Assembly (NCBI GenBank): GCA_963677925.2
Contig: CAXXYH010000004.1
Location: 768,001-832,000, forward strand
Reading direction: 5' to 3'
Origin: Spirochaetia bacterium
GTDB taxonomy: Bacteria > Spirochaetota > Spirochaetia > UBA9216
DNA length: 64,000 nucleotides
Shown here: positions 29,931 through 43,690 of the stretch, one piece after another
Layout: each line of letters begins with the position of its first letter
Position numbering within the stretch: position 1 is the stretch's first letter
Made by a program: the position numbers and the translations under genes
Notes under the pieces: model-generated
The model's database searches: none
Seen by the model: the letters and a program-made list of their open reading frames with translations, nothing else
What the model was told of the DNA's origin: nothing

Positions 29931-30917
29931 TTACTTGTCAGACTTCTTTCCGTCTTCGCTGATGCTCTGCCTCATGTCTGTATCAGCCTGAATGTTTCTG
30001 AGCCGATAATAATCCATGATGCCCAGATGCCCTTCTCTGAATGCGGCTGCAATAGCTTTTGGAATCTCGGCCTCCGCCAGAACAACCTGTGCCTGGTTTT
30101 CCTGAACCAGGGCTGACATTTCCTGCTCTCTTGCAATTGCTGCTGCTCTGCGCTGTTCCGCAACAGCCTGGAATCTGCGTTTATCTGCTTCTGCCTGATC
30201 GGCCTGAAGTTTTGCTCCGATATTATCGCCGACATCCACATCTGCTATATCGATTGAAAGAATCTCGAAAGCCGTTCCTGCATCCAGACCCTTTGCAAGT
30301 ACGGTTTTTGAAATCTTGTCAGGATTTTCAATAACATCCTTATAAGTTTCTGAACTTCCGATTGTAGTTACAATACCTTCACCGACTCTGGCTATGATTG
30401 TCTCCTCAGTGGCTCCTCCGACAAGCCTTTCTATATTGGCCCTCACGGTAACTCTGGCCTTTGCTCTCAGCTGTATTCCGTCCTTGGCCACTGCGTCAAT
30501 TGTCTGCCGGCCCTTATCAGGATTGGGGCAGTCGATTACCTTGGGGTTTACGCTGGTTTTTACCGCATCAAGTACATCACGGCCTGCCAGATCGATAGCT
30601 GCAGCCTGCTGAAAATCAAGCACGATATTTGCCTTATTTGCAGCAATAAGCGCCTTGCTTACTCTTATGACGTCACCGCCCGCCAGGTAGTGTGTTTCGA
30701 GAAGATCCGAATCTGTTGCAATACCGGCCTTTGTAAGCATAATCCGGCTGTCAACGATCTGCTTTGATTTGACCTGCCGTATCCACATTCCTATCAGGCG
30801 TCCGAGCGAGATGTGTGCACCTGAAAGCAGGGCTCTGAACCACAATCCGAAAAACTTGATAAACAGTGCAATAATTATGAGGGCTATAACCCCTGCTACG
30901 ATATAAACCAGAACCAT
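29931..30917 (-). CDS. floA: flotillin-like protein FloA (YqfA, UPF0365)
   Basis: [59 protein letters not shown]. Confidence 0.93.
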
Positions 30918-31394
30918 TTAATCCTCCTTGCTTACGACAATCCTGTTGCCGTCGACTTTTTTAACAATAATTTTACTGTCTTTTTCTATATATTCACCGT
31001 TGGAAACGGCGTTTATCCGCCTGTTTTCGATAATTATCATTCCGGACGGTCTGAGGTCGGTAAGAGCAGTCCCTGACTGTCCCAGAATGCTGCTCATGTC
31101 TCCAGCTCCTGCGGTAAAGCCTTCTTCTTTTCCGAAGGTCTTCCCGAGAATCAGCCGCTTGCCGAAAAAAGTATACGGAAAAACCTTGAAGAACAGAGCT
31201 ATCAGCAGCGGAATCATTATTGCCGCAATGATGATAAAAACCGCACCAGCGGTATTGCTTATCATAAACGCGGTTACAATGGATGCAATAACCGTCCCCG
31301 CACCGACAAGGCCGACAAGCCCGAAAGCCGGTATGAAAAACTCAATAATTATAAATATTATCCCTGCCGCAAGCAGTGCTGCCGCTTTTATCAT
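30918..31394 (-). CDS. short NfeD family protein
   Basis: TM segments plus OB-fold G.ALTDLRPSG....RINAVSNGEYI. Confidence 0.88.
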   Translation of the reverse strand: MIKAAALLAAGIIFIIIEFFIPAFGLVGLVGAGTVIASIVTAFMISNTAGAVFIIIAAIMIPLLIALFFKVFPYTFFGKRLILGKTFGKEEGFTAGAGDMSSILGQSGTALTDLRPSGMIIIENRRINAVSNGEYIEKDSKIIVKKVDGNRIVVSKED

Positions 31395-32860
31395 GTCATG
31401 TCCGCCTTTGAAGCAATAATCCGGTTTCCGTTAACGCCGGTAATAATTACTACAGTTCCCTTCTCAATATATTCACCGGAAGATTCAACCGTTATAAGCT
31501 CTCCGTCAATTTCGGCCTTTCCGGCAGGGCGGAGGTCGGTCGCGGCTGTTCCCGTCTTTCCAATGAGAGCAGAGTCTGTATTCACTTTCTGAACTGTAAA
31601 GCCGGAGGCCGGCGTTTCTTCTGTTTTCAGTACAAGCCGGTTGAATACACCAATTCTGGGAAACAGCAGGAATATTACACCTACCAGAATTATCGAGCCG
31701 AGGGTTCCTATTCCTACGTTGATGATATTCTGCTTAAAAAGATCATACTGCCAGTCTACCTCCGGCAGGACAAAGTCCTGACCTGCAAGTACAAGTCCGA
31801 CCGCAATGAGCACTATTCCGCTTATTCCTGCTGCCCCGAAGCCGGGAATTATAAATATTTCGACAGCAAGAAGAGCCACTCCTGCAAGAAAAAGCAGTAT
31901 TTCAAGCGAGCCCACATTCCCGAGCATTGCATTAGAGGCAAACAGAATTGAAAAGACAATTATCGCAACGGTTCCTGGTATTCCGAAGCCCGGACTTGTA
32001 ATTTCAATATATACGGCAGCCAGCCCGATTATTACAAGAAGTGTTGTGAGGGCGCTTCCTGTAATGAGTGCTATCAGGCTGTCGGGTATGCTTGATTCAG
32101 CTGTTTCCACACTGTCCGCCTCAATTCCTTCAAGTTTAAGCAGCTCTGTTCTGCTTTCAACTGTTCCCGAGCTGATCCGGTAAAAGGCCATTTCGTTGGC
32201 GGTCAGAGTCAGCAGTTTTCCGGGTTTAGAAACGGTTTTGCCTGTCCTGAATGTTTTACCGTTTTTCTCTGCATCAGTTTGAATCTGAGGCAGTTCTTCT
32301 GCGGATGCAAGTGAGGGGATATCATTTATAAAGTATTCTGAAAGCTCTGTGTCGGCATCTACCATTGCAAGTGCCGCAGCCTTCGGATATCCGTTCTTCT
32401 CGGCAAGTGCGGCCATCTGCCCGCGGACGGCGCTTACGGTTTTCTCTTCGGCCGCCTTCATTCCTTCAGCACTCGAATAGACCGGCGCCGCTGCGCCAAT
32501 GGATGTTCCGGGCGCCATATAAATTTCATTGCAGGCAAAGCTTATAAGAGCTCCGGCCGACCAGCTTACGCCGGTAGTTTCAGGGGCTGCCGGAATATAG
32601 GCAATTGTATGCTGTTCTGCATTGCCGATCAGCGTTGCAATCTGAAGCGCCGATTCAACAAGGCCGCCGAAAGTGTCAATTTCAAATATTATTGTATCCG
32701 CGCCGCTGTTATCGGCTTTCTCAATGCTGCGTCTTATAAATACAGTCAGTGAACGATCTATCTCTCCGTTAACCGGAATGACGGTAACGTCAGCTGCTTC
32801 CGCGCAGACGGCGGAAAAAAGAACCAGAATCGGTATTAATTTGAACAATCTTTTTTTCAT
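31391..32860 (-). CDS. long NfeD (YqeZ-like): ClpP-like protease domain, TM domain and OB fold
   Basis: IDTFGG, SAGALI, MAPGTSIGAA; PGFG repeats; TDLRPAGKA. Confidence 0.9.
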   Translation of the reverse strand: MKKRLFKLIPILVLFSAVCAEAADVTVIPVNGEIDRSLTVFIRRSIEKADNSGADTIIFEIDTFGGLVESALQIATLIGNAEQHTIAYIPAAPETTGVSWSAGALISFACNEIYMAPGTSIGAAAPVYSSAEGMKAAEEKTVSAVRGQMAALAEKNGYPKAAALAMVDADTELSEYFINDIPSLASAEELPQIQTDAEKNGKTFRTGKTVSKPGKLLTLTANEMAFYRISSGTVESRTELLKLEGIEADSVETAESSIPDSLIALITGSALTTLLVIIGLAAVYIEITSPGFGIPGTVAIIVFSILFASNAMLGNVGSLEILLFLAGVALLAVEIFIIPGFGAAGISGIVLIAVGLVLAGQDFVLPEVDWQYDLFKQNIINVGIGTLGSIILVGVIFLLFPRIGVFNRLVLKTEETPASGFTVQKVNTDSALIGKTGTAATDLRPAGKAEIDGELITVESSGEYIEKGTVVIITGVNGNRIIASKADMT

Positions 32861-34281: not shown

Positions 34282-34337
34282 TTCAACAGTCCTTCCCATA
34301 ATCGTAGCATCGGCCTGTTTAATATTATATCTTCAGT

Positions 34338-34384
34338 AAAAAAAATAAAACTCCAATAATTTCATTTTGGAACTATTGGAGTTT
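34338..34384 (-). terminator. intrinsic terminator of the Rrf2 operon
   Basis: Minus strand AAACTCCAATAGTTCC-AAAA-TGAAATTATTGGAGTTT followed by a T-rich tract. Confidence 0.7.
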
Positions 34385-34403: not shown

Positions 34404-34646
34404 CTAATATCCGGCTTCCGCAGCCATTACGTTGGCCGGGTCGAAGGCGTGACATGGGGTAACCGCATGTACCGAACCGCAGTCCGGGCATTTAAATTCG
34501 AAGGTTTCCATCTCGAATTCGCTTCCGCAGGATCCGCAGGTAATCTGCAGAGGCACCGGAAGGTACTGTTCCGAGAATCCCATCATCCTTACCTTGTCTA
34601 CAACTGCCTTTGCATTATCAAATGAACCTGAACAACCGTCATGCAT
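34404..34646 (-). CDS. small HypA-like Zn-finger / metal-binding protein
   Basis: N-terminal MHDGC; CGSC and CPDC pairs; VTPCH; overlaps the upstream gene. Confidence 0.75.
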   Translation of the reverse strand: MHDGCSGSFDNAKAVVDKVRMMGFSEQYLPVPLQITCGSCGSEFEMETFEFKCPDCGSVHAVTPCHAFDPANVMAAEAGY

Positions 34647-35673
34647 ATCTTTTCTCCTCTGAATCTTTGGTTTCTGTCAGTCTGTTTCCCTGTCTGAGTT
34701 TTGTTCTGTAAGACAGGAGGGTTCTGTCGAGCTCTTCAAGCTCGCCGAGGATTGTTTTCTCCTCTTCTGTTGTTTCAATAATTTTTGAGATTCCGCCGTT
34801 TTTAATTACAATCCGCCGGTCGGCCATCAGCGCAAGAATAGGGTCGTGTGTGGCCATCAGGACAATTTTTTCTTCGGATAAAAGCAGTTCGAGAGCCTTT
34901 TTACGGTCAATACCTGCGTTTTCGATCTCATCAATAAGGATTATAGGTGATTTGCTTAGGATTGCTGTGTCGGCAATCATAAGAGCCCGTGACTGTCCGC
35001 CGCTGAGGCTTGTGACCGGGGTTTCCGGTCCGAACTGTTCGCCTGCAAGCCTGTTTGCCTCGGCGATGATTTTTTCAGTTATTTCCTCCCTGTTTTCGGC
35101 CATGCGGCTTTCGGCATGCATGCTCACAAATTCGCGGACGCTTAAGTCCATTACGAAGTTCATATTCTGCGACAGCTGTGCCACAAGCTTCTTCGAGGTA
35201 GAAAAGCGCCAGCTTTTATCAGGAACTTCCCCGTTTATAAGAATACGCCTTGATGTCGGTGTATCGGCCTGTGCAACCCATTCAATATCGCCGAGCAGCC
35301 TGCTTTTTCCGGAACCGGTAGGGCCTACAATTGAGACAATTTCACTTGTCCTGATCACAAGCTCTTCAAATCCTTCGGAATTTCCCGATTTATCGGTTCC
35401 GGGAAGTATCGTTACCGACTGTACCTTTTCGTTTTCACCGAGGAATTCAAGCATCTGGTTTATAAAGTCTGCAAGGCCGGTCATAAGCCTTTCAGGGTCG
35501 ATCGCCCTGTCTTCGCGCTCGGTTTCATCAAAGCTGTTGAAAAGTTCTCCGATAGTCTGCTTTTTCCGGCCTGTCAGGCTTATGTTGTTGTCGGCGAAAT
35601 AAGTTTCGGCAAAGGGGTAGGCGTCAAGAACCCTTGCCGCCGTCAGTGTTTCGAGATCCTTTTTAAGCACCAT
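34639..35673 (-). CDS. ABC-type ATPase with N-terminal accessory domain
   Basis: GPTGSGKS, LSGGQ, ILIDEIEN, ATHD; start ATG 35673 (or 35682) near AGGAGG. Confidence 0.9.
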   Translation of the reverse strand: MVLKKDLETLTAARVLDAYPFAETYFADNNISLTGRKKQTIGELFNSFDETEREDRAIDPERLMTGLADFINQMLEFLGENEKVQSVTILPGTDKSGNSEGFEELVIRTSEIVSIVGPTGSGKSRLLGDIEWVAQADTPTSRRILINGEVPDKSWRFSTSKKLVAQLSQNMNFVMDLSVREFVSMHAESRMAENREEITEKIIAEANRLAGEQFGPETPVTSLSGGQSRALMIADTAILSKSPIILIDEIENAGIDRKKALELLLSEEKIVLMATHDPILALMADRRIVIKNGGISKIIETTEEEKTILGELEELDRTLLSYRTKLRQGNRLTETKDSEEKRYA

Positions 35674-36373
35674 GGCTGGCATCCTCCTGAAGGTTTATTT
35701 TGCGAACATTTCCCATCTGGTAGCTTTCGCCTATCCGGGTTTCACCCAGACAGTAGGAGCACATTGCAGACGGCATCGGAAAACGCAGCTCCTTTCCCTG
35801 AAGGCTTGTGAGGGCGGTTTTCGGGTCATACAGCAGGGTGCTCAATTCAAAGCTTCCCTGGCCTGTAAGCCCGTTGATGTGCATAATTACAGCCGAAGGG
35901 TTAACGGCGTTCACTCTGGATGCAAAGACTTCCCTTTCCGCCTGGGAAACAATGTCGCCCTTGGTGATGATCACAATGTCAGCCGACTTAAGCATTGGAC
36001 CGATTTTCTTGGGGGTGTTTATTCCGCTTAGATTGTCGATTACGCAGACGGCCTTCACTTCCTTCACGTATGGAGAACAGCGGTTGCAGAGACCTGCAGA
36101 TTCACTTATCAGTACATCAAAGCCCGACTCGACTCCCCACTGTGTTATTTCTTCTATATTGCTGACGAAATAGTGGTCAGGACAGAGTGAGCCTGAGAGG
36201 CCTTTTTTTACAGGGATGCCTGCCTTGCGGTAGAGTTCGTCATCATCTGTATAGAGGCAGTCGAACTTGGCTACTCCCACTTTAAGGCCTCTGCTTTTAA
36301 GTGATTCGATAGTTTTAAGTATCACCGAGGTCTTGCCCGATGAGGGCGGACCTGAAAATGTCACAAGGTTCAT
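35663..36373 (-). CDS. G3E-family GTPase (HypB/UreG/CobW-like)
   Basis: GPPSSGKT, LCPDH, ESAGLCNRC, TKGD, C-terminal CSYC. Confidence 0.88.
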   Translation of the reverse strand: MNLVTFSGPPSSGKTSVILKTIESLKSRGLKVGVAKFDCLYTDDDELYRKAGIPVKKGLSGSLCPDHYFVSNIEEITQWGVESGFDVLISESAGLCNRCSPYVKEVKAVCVIDNLSGINTPKKIGPMLKSADIVIITKGDIVSQAEREVFASRVNAVNPSAVIMHINGLTGQGSFELSTLLYDPKTALTSLQGKELRFPMPSAMCSYCLGETRIGESYQMGNVRKINLQEDASHGA

Positions 36374-37609
36374 TTATACTCCTGCTGCTGATTCGACAGC
36401 TGAATTGAATACTTCTTCGCAGTGACCGATCAGCTCTGCGATATCGTTTGAATATATATAGTCCCATCCCGGCCACATAAATGTGTTTGACAAATCTATC
36501 CGGTTATCAACATCCTCTCTTGTGCTGGGGAAAAGCCCGTTGTGGGCCAGGGTTTCACCGACTTCTTTTGATGCAAAGAAATCAACTACCGGCTGAATCT
36601 TTTCCGCAGAAGCAGCCTTAGTAAGCATGAAGATCGGACTTAAAATTGCCCCGTCCTCGGGCCATACCGCCTTCATCGGTCCGCCTTCTTTTACGGTCTT
36701 AGTGAAGAAAAACGGCATTATTGTTACCGCAGGCCTGTTTGCTTTTTTGGTACTGCTTTTGACCATCTGTGAGGGGTGCATTGATTCAAGCAGACTTTTT
36801 CCCAGTCTGAAGACGCCGTCGTCGCCGTAATTCCGGTGGATGTTTATCAGAATCGCATTGAAAAGATCGAAGTCTCCTATAGGGATTGATACCCTGTTTT
36901 CAAATTCGGGGCTGAGAATGTCTTTCCAGCTTTTCGGTGCCGGGGTATCTCCAAGTTCATTTGTGTTTACAAGAAATACTGCAGGTACGGCGCTGATTAT
37001 GGAATAGTGCCCGCGGGGGTCTTTCAGATCGATTCCGTCAAAAAGTTCGTTGTATTTTTCATATCCGCTTAAATCACTGAAAACTCCCTGCTCCTTGTAT
37101 CTGCCGATTTTTTTTCTGTCAAAGAAAAGATCGAATCCGGCTGAAATGAAAATGTCTGGAAGGTTCTCATGGCTGCTTAAACCGCTGATGTTTTTTTCAA
37201 CCCAGTCCAGTCCCATGGAAGCGGCTTTCAGTTCGTGGGCAATCTGCAGTCCGGAATCCTTTTCAAAGCCTTCGGCAAAGCGGCTGAACTGTTCCAGCAG
37301 CGGAATTCTTACCGGGCAGGGCAGGAGTCCTGTGAGGCTGATGTCGGGGTCCGAAACCTTTTCGGTATTTATTCCGTCAATTCCGCTTTCTGCTTTCCGT
37401 TTGATTGCCTCGTTGAGCAGTGCGGAGAAGGACTGCAGGTCTGTCTGCTTAAGCATCAGTGCGTGCTTGAGGGATATGGTCTTAGCGAATTTTTCCCTTT
37501 GAGCCTCGTCATCCATCTGTGGAAATCCGTTGTTTATAAAAACAGGAATAGTTTCCGGATACCTGTCTACTATGCTGTAAAGTTTGTCGTTTTCTTCAAA
37601 ATAGTTCAT
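36374..37609 (-). CDS. substrate-binding-protein homologue with N-terminal DUF1858-like domain and no signal peptide
   Basis: IVDRYPETIPVF..NGF N-terminal domain; LPCPVR; P.SW.D.L.P; WPEDGA..SP. Confidence 0.8.
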   Translation of the reverse strand: MNYFEENDKLYSIVDRYPETIPVFINNGFPQMDDEAQREKFAKTISLKHALMLKQTDLQSFSALLNEAIKRKAESGIDGINTEKVSDPDISLTGLLPCPVRIPLLEQFSRFAEGFEKDSGLQIAHELKAASMGLDWVEKNISGLSSHENLPDIFISAGFDLFFDRKKIGRYKEQGVFSDLSGYEKYNELFDGIDLKDPRGHYSIISAVPAVFLVNTNELGDTPAPKSWKDILSPEFENRVSIPIGDFDLFNAILINIHRNYGDDGVFRLGKSLLESMHPSQMVKSSTKKANRPAVTIMPFFFTKTVKEGGPMKAVWPEDGAILSPIFMLTKAASAEKIQPVVDFFASKEVGETLAHNGLFPSTREDVDNRIDLSNTFMWPGWDYIYSNDIAELIGHCEEVFNSAVESAAGV

Positions 37610-38043
37610 TTGTTCTCCGTATCCCCGCTTATGCCTGTATGACTGCTGAATTCAGCCAGATTTATAGTTTCCAGTATATTGTAGATTTCCTGTGAGACTG
37701 AGCTCATCTTTGCCGTGAAGATACAGCTGCTGAATGAGCACTCCGATCTGCCCAGCGGACAGCCTTTATTATCTATTTTTGATTCCATGATCTCGTAGAT
37801 GTTTAGAAAACTGATTTCCCGGGGGTCTTTTGACAGTATGAATCCGCCGGAGGGGCCCCTTACCGAGGACACTATGCCGGCCTTGCTCAGCCTCTGAAAC
37901 ACCTTTGCCAGATGGGCTTCGGATGCACCCAGATTTTTTGCTATAAAGCCGGTATTCAGCCTTTGCGGGGCCTCTCTTGCTATGAGGGCAAGGCTGTGAA
38001 ATGCCAGTGATGCTCCCTCGGATATATTTATAAGCGGATTCAT
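37606..38043 (-). CDS. Rrf2 family transcriptional regulator (three Cys, probably Fe-S binding)
   Basis: ASEAHLAKVFQRL, SVRGPSGGF, CPLGRSECSFSSCIF. Confidence 0.93.
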   Translation of the reverse strand: MNPLINISEGASLAFHSLALIAREAPQRLNTGFIAKNLGASEAHLAKVFQRLSKAGIVSSVRGPSGGFILSKDPREISFLNIYEIMESKIDNKGCPLGRSECSFSSCIFTAKMSSVSQEIYNILETINLAEFSSHTGISGDTENK

Positions 38044-38061
38044 GGATTCTCCTGTAAACTG

Positions 38062-38089
38062 TTATTTAGGTATTACAATACCTAAATAA
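38062..38089. promoter_or_regulatory. candidate Rrf2 operator
   Basis: Perfect inverted repeat TTATTTAGGTATT-AC-AATACCTAAATAA ending 18 bp before the rrf2 start codon. Confidence 0.75.
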
Positions 38090-38158: not shown

Positions 38159-39280
38159 ATGGACCCAATAATGTATGATATCAGCAGAAGGCTCGGGCCG
38201 GATGAGCTGAAAAAACAAAGCAGAAATATCGGAAAGAATGAATTAATTCAGATTGTAGCTGAATATTCAGATCACTTTGTCGGCATCCTCAATGATGCAA
38301 GGCAGTTCGTATACATCAACGAGGCATATTTTAAAAATAATGCTCATCTTGCAGATCTGATCGGCTACAGACCCGGAGAGGTTTTTAAATGTATTCACTC
38401 AGAGGAACATTCAGCCGGCTGCGGCAATTCGGAAAGCTGCAGGTTCTGCTATGCCGGAAACACAATTCTGCAGACAATTTTTAAGGATGAGAAAGTAATA
38501 AATCAGGGAAGAATGCTGGTAACTCTCGATAACCGTATTTCCGCGGTTGATTTCGAGGTGAAAACAGTACCCTTCAGAATGGAAAATGAGAGGTTCATTC
38601 TGTTTTTCCTTACTGATACAAGCAGGATTAAGCAGAGCGAACTGATTGAAAGGGCCTTCTTTCATGATGTTTTAAACAGCTCGAATGTGCTTACAAGCCT
38701 GGTTTCGATCTCTAAAATATCATCAGAGTATATTGAAAATGCGGACAGAATAATCGAATCGAGTATTACTGATATTATTGAGCAGATATACTTCTTTAAA
38801 AAACTGAAAAACTCAGAGGCCGGTACATTTCATCCGGATTTTGAAGTAATTGACCTTTTAGAAGAGATTGAAGCTCTTGTAAATACTGTTAAAAATACAT
38901 CCTGGGTTGAGGGTATAGAACTCGAGCTGTCTACCGCCGGCCTGGGTGAAGAGCTTAAGACCGACAGAATAATATTCCGCAGGATAATACTCAACCTTCT
39001 GAAAAACGCTTTCGAAGCCAGCCGTCCCGGTGATGAAGTTAAGCTGGCGATCTATCTGCGTGATGATTATATTGAGATTCATGTTAACAATCCTGCTGTA
39101 ATGCCGGAGGAGGTCAGGATGCAGGTTTTTCAGAGATCGTTCAGTACGAAGGGGGAGGGCCGGGGCATAGGAACCTACAGTATTAAGCTGTTCACCGAGA
39201 ATTTTTTAAAGGGTAGGGTTGCCTTTACATCAGAGGAAGGCCGCGGCACCACCTTTGTGCTGACCCTTCCAAGGCAGTAG
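38159..39280 (+). CDS. cytoplasmic histidine kinase with Cys-rich PAS-like sensor
   Basis: FFHDVLN H-box, NLLKNAFEAS, FSTKGEGRGIG; CIH....GCG.SESCRFC. Confidence 0.88.
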   Translation: MDPIMYDISRRLGPDELKKQSRNIGKNELIQIVAEYSDHFVGILNDARQFVYINEAYFKNNAHLADLIGYRPGEVFKCIHSEEHSAGCGNSESCRFCYAGNTILQTIFKDEKVINQGRMLVTLDNRISAVDFEVKTVPFRMENERFILFFLTDTSRIKQSELIERAFFHDVLNSSNVLTSLVSISKISSEYIENADRIIESSITDIIEQIYFFKKLKNSEAGTFHPDFEVIDLLEEIEALVNTVKNTSWVEGIELELSTAGLGEELKTDRIIFRRIILNLLKNAFEASRPGDEVKLAIYLRDDYIEIHVNNPAVMPEEVRMQVFQRSFSTKGEGRGIGTYSIKLFTENFLKGRVAFTSEEGRGTTFVLTLPRQ

Positions 39281-41052: not shown

Positions 41053-41430
41053 TTAATCCTTGTCATGAAATCTTCGATCCCAGTCTGTTTCTTTATCTGA
41101 GGTTGCATCGTCTTCCATTTTGTTGACGCGCTGTTTCAGGTTGTCAAACTCGCTTTTAATATCTTCAAAACCGTAATGTCGTCTTCCGCCGCGATCCTTA
41201 TAGTCATCATCGCTTCGTCTGCCCGAACGGTAGCCCGGTTCCATGGGGAGTACCAGTCCCATTATCAGGTATATTATAAGACAGGGCACTACGGCGCTTG
41301 CTATTGCAATCAGTATGAAAAGGAGTCTTACCATATTTACAGGGAGATCTCTCCATTCAGCAATGCCCTTGCAGACTCCGAGGATTTCACCGTGTCTGGA
41401 TCTGTATAGTTTTCTTCCGGTATAGGTCAT
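41053..41430 (-). CDS. pspC: phage shock protein C
   Basis: KLYRSRHGEILGVCKGIAEW, one TM segment, IYLIMGLVLP, coiled-coil tail. Confidence 0.88.
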   Translation of the reverse strand: MTYTGRKLYRSRHGEILGVCKGIAEWRDLPVNMVRLLFILIAIASAVVPCLIIYLIMGLVLPMEPGYRSGRRSDDDYKDRGGRRHYGFEDIKSEFDNLKQRVNKMEDDATSDKETDWDRRFHDKD

Positions 41431-41436
41431 AGTCAA

Positions 41437-41682
41437 TTACCGCTCCTTCCGTTTTTTATCGTTATACAGGGTTTCCAGGTTGTCGATTCTACGGTTTAAA
41501 TCCCGAAGACCCCTGTAAATTTCATCCATCATCTTCGCATCCTCGTCGCTCATTTTATCTCCGCGGCGGGATTTTTCCTTTCTGCCTGTTACTATCGCAA
41601 TCACCGCCAGCACGAATACAAAGGGTGCTGCGATAGCAAAAAGCGAAATTATCATTCCTGAACTAATTATTGGCCCCATCAT
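41437..41682 (-). CDS. pspB: phage shock protein B-like
   Basis: One TM plus coiled coil LNRRIDNLETL; between pspA and pspC. Confidence 0.72.
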   Translation of the reverse strand: MMGPIISSGMIISLFAIAAPFVFVLAVIAIVTGRKEKSRRGDKMSDEDAKMMDEIYRGLRDLNRRIDNLETLYNDKKRKER

Positions 41683-42343
41683 TCTTCTTTATACTCTTTT
41701 TAAGTTTTGAAAGCTCTTCTTCGATTTCGGTCTCATTTTCAAGTTTGTGAAACTCGTTTTCGTTGGTCCCGCTCTTTGAGCCGGTAAAAACCATATCTGC
41801 GTCAGCTTCCATTCTTTCAATCCGGCCTTCTAGTTCTTCGAAACGCATTGTTGCATCAACACCGGATGCGTTTCTTATAGTCTCTCTAGCCTTCTTTTTT
41901 TCGGTTGCATGAATGCTTCGCTGTATTAATATACGTCTTTTCTGTTTGACTGTCTCCAGTTTTTCTTCAAGCTGGGTAATGTTTCCCTTGCATTCATCAA
42001 TAATAGTATCAAACTGTTTAAGATCGTTTTCAAGCAGTTCAAGCTGGTTTGCGCAGGATTTTTTCTCAAGAAGAGCTTCACGGGCCAGATCGTCACGGCC
42101 TTTTTCTACTGCAAGTTTTGCCCTCGAACTCCAGCGGTCGCATTTTTCCTGGAAGTCATCTTTTTCCCGGGCCATTTTGGCCTTGTCTGCCATTGTTGCT
42201 GCGCATGATGATTTGAGTTCTACGAGTGTATCTTCCATCTCTCTAATCATCAGGTTGATCATTTTTTCAGGGTCTTCCGCCCTGTCAAGCATTGAATTGA
42301 TGTTTGAGTTAACTATGTCTTTGAATCTTGTAAAAACGCCCAT
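41663..42343 (-). CDS. pspA: phage shock protein A
   Basis: MGVFTRFKDIVNSNINSMLDRAEDPEKMINLMIREMEDTLVE; GRDDLAREAL; start ATG 42343 after GGAGG. Confidence 0.95.
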   Translation of the reverse strand: MGVFTRFKDIVNSNINSMLDRAEDPEKMINLMIREMEDTLVELKSSCAATMADKAKMAREKDDFQEKCDRWSSRAKLAVEKGRDDLAREALLEKKSCANQLELLENDLKQFDTIIDECKGNITQLEEKLETVKQKRRILIQRSIHATEKKKARETIRNASGVDATMRFEELEGRIERMEADADMVFTGSKSGTNENEFHKLENETEIEEELSKLKKSIKKNDGANN

Positions 42344-42375
42344 TTTATCCTCCATGGTTTGTTTGTACATATATA

Positions 42376-42392
42376 TGCAGATGCTGTGCCAG
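42376..42392 (-). promoter_or_regulatory. sigma54 (-24/-12) promoter of pspABC
   Basis: Minus strand CTGGCACAGCATCTGCA fits TGGCAC-N5-(T/C)TGC. Confidence 0.85.
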
Positions 42393-42538
42393 TTTTAGGA
42401 ATAACGCTGAAAAAATCAAAAAACTTCATAAAATCGGCTGTCTGACTGCACCTATGGGCTTATTCAGGCTCATTTTCAGTACATCGTTCCATAATTAAAC
42501 AGCTGTCGGGGAGGATTCTGTTACCATTTTGCTGGACC

Positions 42539-42626
42539 TGGCGAAAAAAACCAATAAAATGGTAAAAAATACCAAATAGCTAAAATAATACTGGTCAAAA
42601 TAACCATTACATGGTAAATTGTACCT
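42539..42626. promoter_or_regulatory. candidate PspF upstream activator sites
   Basis: Four TGGY-N7-ACCW dyads at 42539, 42560, 42592 and 42612. Confidence 0.65.
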
Positions 42627-42628
42627 AC

Positions 42629-43690
42629 ATGAAATTCTCAGATTTCGTTGAACGCGAAGCTCTGGGAGAATCTCCGGTATTTCTGGAATTTCAGGCAGAA
42701 CTCAGTCGGGCCGCCGGTATAAATCGATCGGTCATGATAATCGGCGAAAGGGGAACCGGAAAGGAATTAGCGGCCTCAAGGCTTCATTACCTTTCCGGAC
42801 GCTGGGAGGCTCCTTTCGTCACACTCAACTGTGCTGCTCTGCCGCCTACGCTTATTGAAACAGAACTTTTTGGACATGAAACAGGAGCGTACACCGGCGC
42901 AGGAAAAACCCGAAAAGGCCGCTTTGAAGAGGCCGACGGGGGGACCCTGTTTCTCGATGAGATAGGCCTGATCCCTCTTGAAGTACAGGAAAAGATACTC
43001 AGAGTAGTCGAATACGGCAGTTTTGAACGTGTCGGCAGTTCACGGACCATCGAAGTTGATGTCCGTATTGTTGCCGCCACCAATGAAGACATGCCGAATT
43101 TGTGCGAAGAGAACAAGTTTAAAAGGGACCTCCTGGACAGACTGTCTTTCGAGGTCCTTTTTCTTCCCCCTTTAAGAGAGCGCAGAGATGATATTATGCT
43201 TCTTGCCAGGCATTTTGCATCAAGAATGGCGTCGGAGCTGAGTCATGCCCGGATGCCCGAGTTCTCGGAAGAAGTAATTCAAAGAATGCATCAATATCCC
43301 TGGCCTGGAAACATCCGTGAGCTTAAAAACGTAGTTGAGCGCGCTGTCTACAAGTGTGAGTCGGGGCTTATTACAGATATAAATGTTGATCCTTTCAAAA
43401 ATCCCTATGAAAAGCCGGAGATTGAATACGGCGCGTCTGATGATAGAGGGGATTCAGGCTTTGAGGCTGAAAGCAGCGGGACTGCCCGCAGTCCCGGGAT
43501 TGTTGAAAAGACAGTTTCGGCTCTTCCCCCTCTTGCAGGATTTCGGGATAATATAAAAGAAATAGAAGTTGAGTACCTCCGGCGGGCCTTGTCGGAAGGA
43601 AAAAACAACCAGAAGAAAGCGGCTGATCTTCTGTCACTGTCCTATGATCAGTTCAGAGGTCTTTACCGCAAATACAGGGAGGAATTATGA
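42629..43690 (+). CDS. pspF: sigma54-dependent activator PspF
   Basis: GERGTGKEL, LHYLSGRW, ELFGHETGAYTGA, FLDEIG, WPGNIRELKNVVER, HTH LSYDQFRGL; divergent from pspA. Confidence 0.92.
   Translation: MKFSDFVEREALGESPVFLEFQAELSRAAGINRSVMIIGERGTGKELAASRLHYLSGRWEAPFVTLNCAALPPTLIETELFGHETGAYTGAGKTRKGRFEEADGGTLFLDEIGLIPLEVQEKILRVVEYGSFERVGSSRTIEVDVRIVAATNEDMPNLCEENKFKRDLLDRLSFEVLFLPPLRERRDDIMLLARHFASRMASELSHARMPEFSEEVIQRMHQYPWPGNIRELKNVVERAVYKCESGLITDINVDPFKNPYEKPEIEYGASDDRGDSGFEAESSGTARSPGIVEKTVSALPPLAGFRDNIKEIEVEYLRRALSEGKNNQKKAADLLSLSYDQFRGLYRKYREEL

Follow-up and report, generated by a model that had tools for sequence, protein, structure and literature searches.

What is the function of an operon that encodes an ATP-binding cassette (ABC) ATPase and a binding protein, and no permease? 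The question is raised by five genes in a 64,000-nt stretch of a Spirochaetia bacterium genome (assembly GCA_963677925.2, contig CAXXYH010000004.1, positions 768,001 to 832,000), hereafter called the window. All five lie on the minus strand, from 38043 down to 34404, and encode, in this order, an Rrf2-family repressor, a binding-protein fold, a G3E GTPase, an ABC ATPase and a small cysteine-rich protein (Table 1). Neighbouring genes share 4, 0 (abutting), 20 and 8 nt, and the five coupled genes noted in a preliminary description of the locus were thus confirmed in coordinates, strand and junctions. The host genome is 5.04 Mb in size and 99.6% complete. Our analysis indicates that the module is real, widespread and uncharacterised, and that it is a variant of metallocofactor maturation driven by nucleotides; there is a fair chance that it is a new kind. 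This subtype travels with the hybrid cluster protein gene hcp and its regulators.

A scan of GTDB gave at least 539 confirmed stretches, and the best 80 were kept as loci. These span Spirochaetota, Cloacimonadota, Fermentibacteria, Bacteroidota, Fusobacteriota, Bacillota and other groups. The binding protein and the ATPase were each present in 78 of the 80, Rrf2 in 34, a cupin in 18, a ferredoxin in 9 and NifS/NifU in 4. Not one of the 80 loci, 55 of them with full flanks, carried a same-strand ABC permease within 1.5 kb. Same-strand membrane proteins were found within this distance in seven loci, and none was an ABC permease (an ArsP-type pair, an oxidoreductase, a chromate transporter, a MutS-domain protein, a cytidylyltransferase, a MatE protein and one without a family). 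The peak 19-residue Kyte-Doolittle hydropathy of the five operon proteins ranged from 0.56 to 1.39, in keeping with the earlier statement that none has a transmembrane segment, and two or more hydrophobic segments were found by hydropathy in none of the 150 best ATPase representatives. Among 91 longer GTPase homologues, 86 were GTPase-ATPase fusions, 3 joined the binding protein to the GTPase and 2 were of other kinds. One cluster of fusions comprises 61 members, complete Clostridium beijerinckii genomes among them; a few near-identical singleton fusions may be frameshifts. These natural fusions indicate that the ATPase works with a soluble partner. Two single-member records join the ATPase straight to the binding-protein fold and show no clear membrane segment. 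The GTPase and ATPase thus form an invariant pair, neither of which works with a membrane subunit. That the module is not a transporter, as first proposed, is well supported. A search of plasmids gave one unannotated Fusobacterium record.

The GTPase has the marks of the G3E superfamily, namely G1, a Glu at G3, a [NT]KxD-type G4, the fold and a PF02492 match above cut-off, and its GPPSSGKT, ESAG and TKGD motifs are invariant or nearly so in 60 sequences. Its structural model has the HypB/UreG fold (best matches 2hf8, 4lps, 2wsm, 4hi0 and 5xkt) at a mean predicted local distance difference test score (pLDDT) of 73, with the Cys-bearing loops 60-68, 95-100 and 202-236 under 50. The G1-G5 motifs and a Cys-His motif in the aligned position are also those of HypB and UreG, but the protein is only about 23% identical to HypB, carries extra Cys pairs and has an obligate ABC ATPase partner. 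It scores far below the cut-offs for both families (TIGR00073, 48.9 vs 121.2 bits; TIGR00101, 20 vs 204 bits). It is not a COG0523 (CobW/ZigA) protein either, since the CxCC motif of that group, as given in the section of PMC9164220 on G3E GTPases, is absent from its 236 residues and the ZigA model scores 14 of the 600 bits required. The G3E GTPases covered in that section are maturation factors. Residues C64, H67, C96, C99, C110, C205 and C208 are invariant in 78/78 sequences. Within the best 80 loci, GTPase identity stays at 79-98% from Spirochaetota and Cloacimonadota to Bacteroidota, Fusobacteriota and Bacillota, a sign of tight constraint on its function; the closest relative among the matches listed is a Spirochaetia metagenome-assembled genome (MAG) with 98% identity. 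The search output shows internal stops in three GTPase matches (G180:C1:2377619-2378314, G214:C20:87278-87973 and G469:C1:2411400-2412080). In G214 and G469 these are probably matches overrunning the true end, as the fetched open reading frames (ORFs) have 231 and 227 aa.

The ATPase belongs to the ABC nucleotide-binding domain superfamily. PF00005 was found in 60/60 sequences, and Walker A, Q-loop, LSGGQ, Walker B and H-loop are intact, invariant columns; the D-loop is unusual. Its family is compact (187 clusters at E <= 1e-30) and distant from ABC domains of solved structure (best PDB match about 52 bits). The preliminary description had seen a short N-terminal domain like the DUF1858 of the binding protein, and an extension of roughly 80 aa is indeed present, but the resemblance is faint (4/60 members, best E 0.012; profile-profile probability 26%). 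SufC of the SufBC2D complex is likewise an ATPase of transporter type that works with no membrane domain, as stated in the portion of PMC9164220 that treats it. Membership of the SUF system was nevertheless rejected, as neither the operon nor the host genome has a SufB/D partner and the best 25 NCBIfam and 10 PDB matches of the ATPase are MacB/LolD-like at about 50 bits, with SufC absent from them. The ATPase was also found fused to radical SAM/SPASM (2), nitroreductase (2) and binding-protein (2) domains. P0240, P0281, P0225 and P0252, which are of the first two kinds, may hint at a client. Four of the six fusions were looked up, two of them from this set; all four were single-member clusters and may be artefacts.

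In the binding protein DUF1858 occupies residues 6-61 (E 5e-12), and the model (pLDDT 86) shows a separate N-terminal domain followed by an FbpA/AfuA/P5PA fold (E about 1e-13, 12-16% identity). It thus resembles the cluster-D substrate-binding proteins of ABC importers (FbpA, FutA, AfuA, P5PA) in fold, but unlike them it has no signal peptide or permease, and it has the DUF1858 domain and an invariant Cys. This Cys, C98 of the LPCP motif, was conserved in 74/74 sequences and lies where the first strand meets the first helix of the fold, a position that we take, from FbpA, to line the ligand cleft. A hydropathy scan gave no sign of export or of a lipid anchor; the flags raised in 2/74 homologues were one apparently over-long start and one internal segment. 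The signal-less protein with DUF1858 and LPCP described at the outset was thereby borne out by hydropathy, Pfam and conservation. In the passages of the literature that mention it, DUF1858 is fused to SufT (PMC4982691), is NnrR-dependent (PMC6710368) and occurs in DrpB of a nitrate reductase system (PMC6282519), which agrees with the role in metal-sulfur chemistry and nitric oxide (NO) stress proposed below.

The 80-aa protein was as first described, with H2, C5, C37, C40, C53, C56 and C65 present in 48/48 sequences. It was found in 69/80 loci, and in 66 of the 72 with room downstream. Like HypA it starts with MH and bears two CxxC motifs, but it lacks most of HypA: PF01155 scores 25 vs 28.9 bits, and the match covers profile positions 66-96 of 112, the zinc finger only. 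The atlas clusters that match this protein have no Pfam family in common.

The wider family, for which 18 of 40 metagenome loci were annotated gene by gene, indicates which parts of the module are constant. Distant GTPase homologues fall into two further types, an intermediate type (about 49-67% identity) and a sister type (36-41%). The LCPDH, CxRC and C-terminal CxxC motifs of the GTPase are common to all three types, and five Cys and one His are kept in 12/12 aligned sequences. The intermediate type keeps the binding-protein fold, often without DUF1858. Relatives in nif clusters were both fused (L136, L137, L141, L142, L144) and unfused (L143, L160, L163); with a clostridial fusion as metagenome query the sample leans toward nif, but the unfused cases lie on other branches. 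The gene order in the fused clusters is modABC, the fusion, the binding protein, a regulator with helix-turn-helix and periplasmic-binding-protein domains (HTH-PBP), an AnfO-like gene and, where reached, nifH. The AnfO-like gene and an unassigned gene of ~320 aa lie between the fused module and nifH (L136:9884-11456, L137:9575-11196). The intermediate type also adjoins FecCD, NMT1-type and TonB importers, ModD, ModE-like regulators and methyltransferases. Each of these neighbouring importers comes with a signal-bearing binding protein and an ATPase of its own, which makes the module an addition to them. The module at L130:6977-9113 has two cytoplasmic binding-protein genes in tandem, with TonB-dependent receptors and periplasmic binding proteins to either side.

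In the sister type a PF04060 Fe-S (iron-sulfur) protein replaces the binding protein (10/10 leaves). Its ATPase is 40-47% and its GTPase 36-41% identical to the proteins of the host operon. It was found beside cysK, metY and related genes in 2 of 4 wide loci, and L132 and L133 adjoin cysK/metA/metY. The third protein of this type (L106:2204-2866, L132-L135) combines the N-terminal PF04060 motif with a conserved domain that has no Pfam match. Atlas look-alikes include archaeal clusters, Methanobacteriota being the commonest. The Fig. 2 legend of PMC12068725 lists an ATPase, a 'Ni2+-binding GTPase' and a COG2000 Fe-S protein beside coenzyme M genes, with their role stated to be unknown. We infer, by description and not by sequence, that this trio is the sister type, whose make-up it shares. 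The module studied here differs in having a binding-protein fold as third partner, and the context of the trio in that legend is sulfur metabolism. In a FastTree phylogeny that was rooted on the sister type by choice, left out near-duplicates and kept one in five of the first 80 loci, the hcp-linked type came out as a single clade (support 0.93) lying among members of the intermediate type. These results show that the third partner can be exchanged: the operon studied here has a binding-protein fold, and the sister branch an Fe-S protein. What stays constant is the GTPase-ATPase pair, which recurs in nitrogenase/molybdenum and in sulfur-assimilation contexts.

The operon has its own regulator and control sites. 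The Rrf2 protein has the winged-helix Rrf2 domain, three C-terminal Cys (C95, C102 and C107, kept in 34/34, 33/34 and 34/34 sequences) and an autoregulatory palindrome, consistent with the three-Cys regulator reported earlier, which the PF02082 match also supports. It falls below the cut-offs of the IscR, NsrR, CymR, RirA and HypR models (NsrR, 31 of 182 bits needed; IscR, 53 of 208). The operator noted before is a perfect palindrome and spans the predicted -10 element. Its 22-nt core has a single exact site in the 5.04-Mb genome and otherwise 5 sites with 5 mismatches each, and this mismatch search is the sole basis on which an Rrf2 regulon beyond the operon was judged. With a search pattern derived from the very loci in which it was counted, an Rrf2-type palindrome was found upstream in 32/33 Rrf2-bearing loci vs 2/43 Rrf2-less loci. 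The terminator of the preliminary description was recovered as a hairpin (34348-34384) of -15.6 kcal/mol (z -4.3), with 0/200 shuffles equally stable. A consensus scan for promoters and terminators listed neither the promoter nor the terminator of the operon, its counts being near chance (11 vs 7.1 and 9 vs 6.2).

Table 1. Genes and control sites of the operon, with positions in the window.
Feature	Position (strand)	Size or structure	Basis
Rrf2-family repressor	37606-38043 (-)	145 aa	PF02082 E 2e-25; TIGR00738 above cut-off
Cytoplasmic binding-protein fold with N-terminal DUF1858	36374-37609 (-)	411 aa	SBP_bac_6 E 2e-77
G3E P-loop GTPase, HypB/UreG fold	35663-36373 (-)	236 aa	cobW/HypB/UreG E 1e-12
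Soluble ABC-type ATPase	34639-35682 (-)	347 aa	ABC_tran E 4e-15
Zinc-ribbon protein	34404-34646 (-)	80 aa	MH(D/E)GC, two CxxC, PCH
Operator, perfect inverted repeat	38062-38089	13-bp arms, 2-nt spacer	read from sequence
Predicted promoter	-10 at 38080-38075; -35 at 38103-38098	17-nt spacer	read by eye, below consensus-scan threshold
Terminator-like hairpin and U-run	34335-34384 (-)	arms 34348-34364 and 34368-34384	

The preliminary description had suggested Hcp as a possible client, and neighbourhood, co-occurrence and regulator sites all support this link. The hcp gene was found in 23/80 loci (21 as called ORFs), and in 42 of the 54 genomes searched for the 59 loci without a called hcp it lay elsewhere. 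Co-occurrence was counted in an even sample of 301 Spirochaetota genomes and in 301 Bacillota genomes; these counts carry no p-value, and kin are not independent. In Spirochaetota 17 genomes carried the GTPase and 93 carried hcp, which was present in 16/17 GTPase carriers vs 77/284 non-carriers, and the two genes lay within about 4 kb in 8 genomes. In Bacillota a GTPase homologue was found in 37/301 genomes. Carriers of the close type (>= 70% identity) had hcp in 11/11 cases, within 6 kb in 8/11; sister-type carriers had it in 17/17 and intermediate-type carriers in 7/9.

The regulator sites point the same way. HcpR2 boxes, with the consensus taken from PMC1274295, were found in 18/43 Rrf2-less loci vs 0/33 Rrf2 loci. 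In G170 the module adjoins hcp and an hcpR-like crp gene without interruption, and two boxes of identical sequence are present. The hcp of the host genome, on contig C3, carries a separate HcpR2 box, and a crp-type gene lies close by. HcpR2 boxes in this genome as a whole were near chance (7 vs 5 in the control); only the location of two of them, ahead of hcp and of a cupin gene, is suggestive. The latter is a stand-alone gene (G000:C3:686768-687152) with the box 39 nt upstream, and is related to the cupin inside 18 module loci. With its hcp, ferredoxin and cupin neighbours and the HcpR2 boxes of Rrf2-less loci, the module resembles the HcpR/NsrR regulons of PMC1274295 (hcp, frdX, dnrN/ytfE). 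The main text of that paper, however, contains neither 'ABC' nor 'GTPase', and the Rrf2 protein of the operon differs from NsrR in its scores, which are below the NsrR and IscR cut-offs, and in having its own operator.

What the module does for Hcp is best explained, in our judgement at about even probability, by a cytoplasmic, nucleotide-driven carrier or inserter of a metal-sulfur centre whose cargo protein can be swapped and which in this subtype would serve Hcp or Fe-S proteins damaged by NO. Among possible centres, a whole or partial Fe-S cluster is the most likely. A cluster carrier is favoured because Hcp, nitrogenase, molybdenum and sulfur-inserting enzymes share metal-sulfur chemistry and because known nickel clients are absent from the five carriers tested. 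The Cys-rich GTPase, probably dimeric like HypB and UreG, would hold the centre on C64/H67, C96/C99 and C205/C208, and the ABC ATPase would act as SufC does, using ATP to load or release it. The binding-protein fold may keep the cargo at C98 in the cleft, with DUF1858 docking partners, and the 80-aa protein could serve as a HypA-like shuttle. The three-Cys Rrf2 protein is predicted to bind an Fe-S cluster and to release the operator upon NO damage or cluster loss. Induced by Rrf2 or HcpR under nitrosative or Fe-S stress, the module would then boost or repair Hcp and similar clusters, the exchangeable third subunit presumably selecting the cargo or client.

Several observations weigh against this proposal. 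Of the 8 spirochaete cases with adjacent hcp, 7 fall in one genus, and 14 of the 18 loci with HcpR2 boxes are from Marinifilaceae. The Bacillota co-occurrence says little, because the background there is 224/301. No hcp match was found in 12/54 genomes searched, many of them MAGs of unknown completeness, and one of the carriers without hcp, G125, is 99% complete. The hcp of the host genome sits on another contig, and the operon has no HcpR2 box. C98 of the binding protein is missing in some deeper relatives. NifS/NifU are present in the host genome, and the module is therefore not needed as a general Fe-S system. Finally, 77 of the 93 hcp-bearing spirochaete genomes and most of the hcp-bearing Bacillota have no GTPase match. 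Since most hcp genomes, all but 16/93 in the Spirochaetota sample, do without the module, we rejected the idea of an obligate Hcp maturase; the module is auxiliary to Hcp.

Two further explanations keep the idea of a carrier and change the cargo; both seem unlikely to us. Under the first, the Cys pairs of the GTPase and C98 would move sulfane sulfur as a persulfide relay, or reverse S-nitrosylation. The many invariant Cys would suit such chemistry, the Hcp cluster holds a cysteine persulfide, and the sister branch adjoins cysK, a CymR/IscR-like gene, metA and metY. A trio of the same description lies beside coenzyme M genes in the Fig. 2 legend of PMC12068725. Against it stand the HypB/UreG fold with its aligned Cys-His metal motif, the position of intermediate relatives beside molybdate, FecCD and TonB importers, and the lack of a conserved desulfurase beside close-type loci (NifS/NifU in 4/80). 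Under the second, which we consider improbable to the same degree, the module would be a HypA/HypB-like chaperone that passes a mononuclear metal or oxyanion (Fe, Mo/W, Ni, Zn) on from an importer. The FbpA-like fold and the HypA-like MH(D/E) start and zinc finger are consistent with this, as are the relatives beside modABC, ModD, ModE-like regulators and FecCD importers with their own binding protein and ATPase; the close-type clade (0.93) nests among these relatives when the root is assumed on the sister branch. However, the conserved Cys exceed the needs of one ion, and Hcp is an iron-only enzyme. Furthermore, [NiFe]-hydrogenase, urease and Ni-containing carbon monoxide dehydrogenase (Ni-CODH) were absent in 5/5 carriers tested, the host genome included. 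The co-occurrence with hydrogenase or CODH that the preliminary description had put forward as a check was thus not found in these carriers, hcp itself giving the only, weak, match to the CODH model. With no known nickel enzyme in these five carriers a nickel role is unlikely, and a HypA/HypB-style nickel function was rejected. The Clade B CODH/ABC operons were rejected as a match as well, since those described in the part of PMC13592312 that deals with them have permeases.

A sensing or regulatory unit, in which the binding-protein fold would respond to a ligand in the cytoplasm and the two NTPases would turn a target on or off with no transfer of cargo, is distinctly improbable. Binding-protein folds do double as cytoplasmic sensor domains, as in the HTH-PBP regulator of L136, and the same pair is found in three different pathways, but the operon already has a dedicated repressor, an output domain is absent and, as noted, the G3E GTPases treated in PMC9164220 are maturation factors. 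Least probable is a true ABC importer with its permease encoded elsewhere and its binding protein exported by an unusual route: the ABC motifs are intact and the deeper relatives L116, L119, L120, L123, L149 and L154 lie next to permease genes, but the transporters in question are equipped with a separate, signal-bearing binding protein and a separate ATPase, no signal peptide was found by the hydropathy scan and a folded domain occupies the N-terminus, and the ATPase is fused to the GTPase (86 cases) and, in the two single-member records, to the binding-protein fold.

Returning to the metal-sulfur carrier, a broader version of it can be offered tentatively, although we lean against it at present. 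The GTPase-ATPase pair would be an old, undescribed platform of anaerobic bacteria and archaea for metal-sulfur biogenesis or insertion, retargeted by its third subunit: by an Fe-S protein to sulfur-inserting enzymes, by a binding fold to nitrogenase/molybdenum, and by the fold with DUF1858 and a HypA-like protein to Hcp. If this were true, the present subtype would be devoted to maturing or repairing the hybrid cluster, and an importer-type ATPase and a binding protein would cooperate without a membrane.

The module works like HypAB/UreEG and SufC, yet it belongs to neither of these systems nor to the ABC importers. Its folds are known, but we came across no account of a system in which a G3E GTPase is combined with a membrane-free ABC ATPase and a cytoplasmic binding-protein fold. 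In agreement with the earlier remark that no experimental characterisation was known, neither a characterisation nor a description of the module was found in the open literature, with supplements and subscription journals outside this coverage. The labels 'ABC transporter' and 'Ni-binding GTPase' that its genes now carry are probably wrong. One small soluble gene set makes the building or repair of the Hcp hybrid cluster testable in strict anaerobes, and the role of the extra genes in clostridial nif clusters likewise becomes testable.

Divergent from the Rrf2 gene lies an orphan histidine kinase-like gene (HATPase_c, 38159-39280, plus strand), and a 115-bp intergenic region is common to both. 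It is probably outside the module, because it is missing at that position in the closest relative, L001. Elsewhere in the window, 41053-43690 holds what we take to be a phage-shock (psp)-like set, with pspC-, pspB- and pspA-like genes and a divergent sigma-54 activator, and 29931-32860 on the minus strand presumably encodes, by appearance, two NfeD-type proteins and a flotillin-like (YqfA/FloA) protein.

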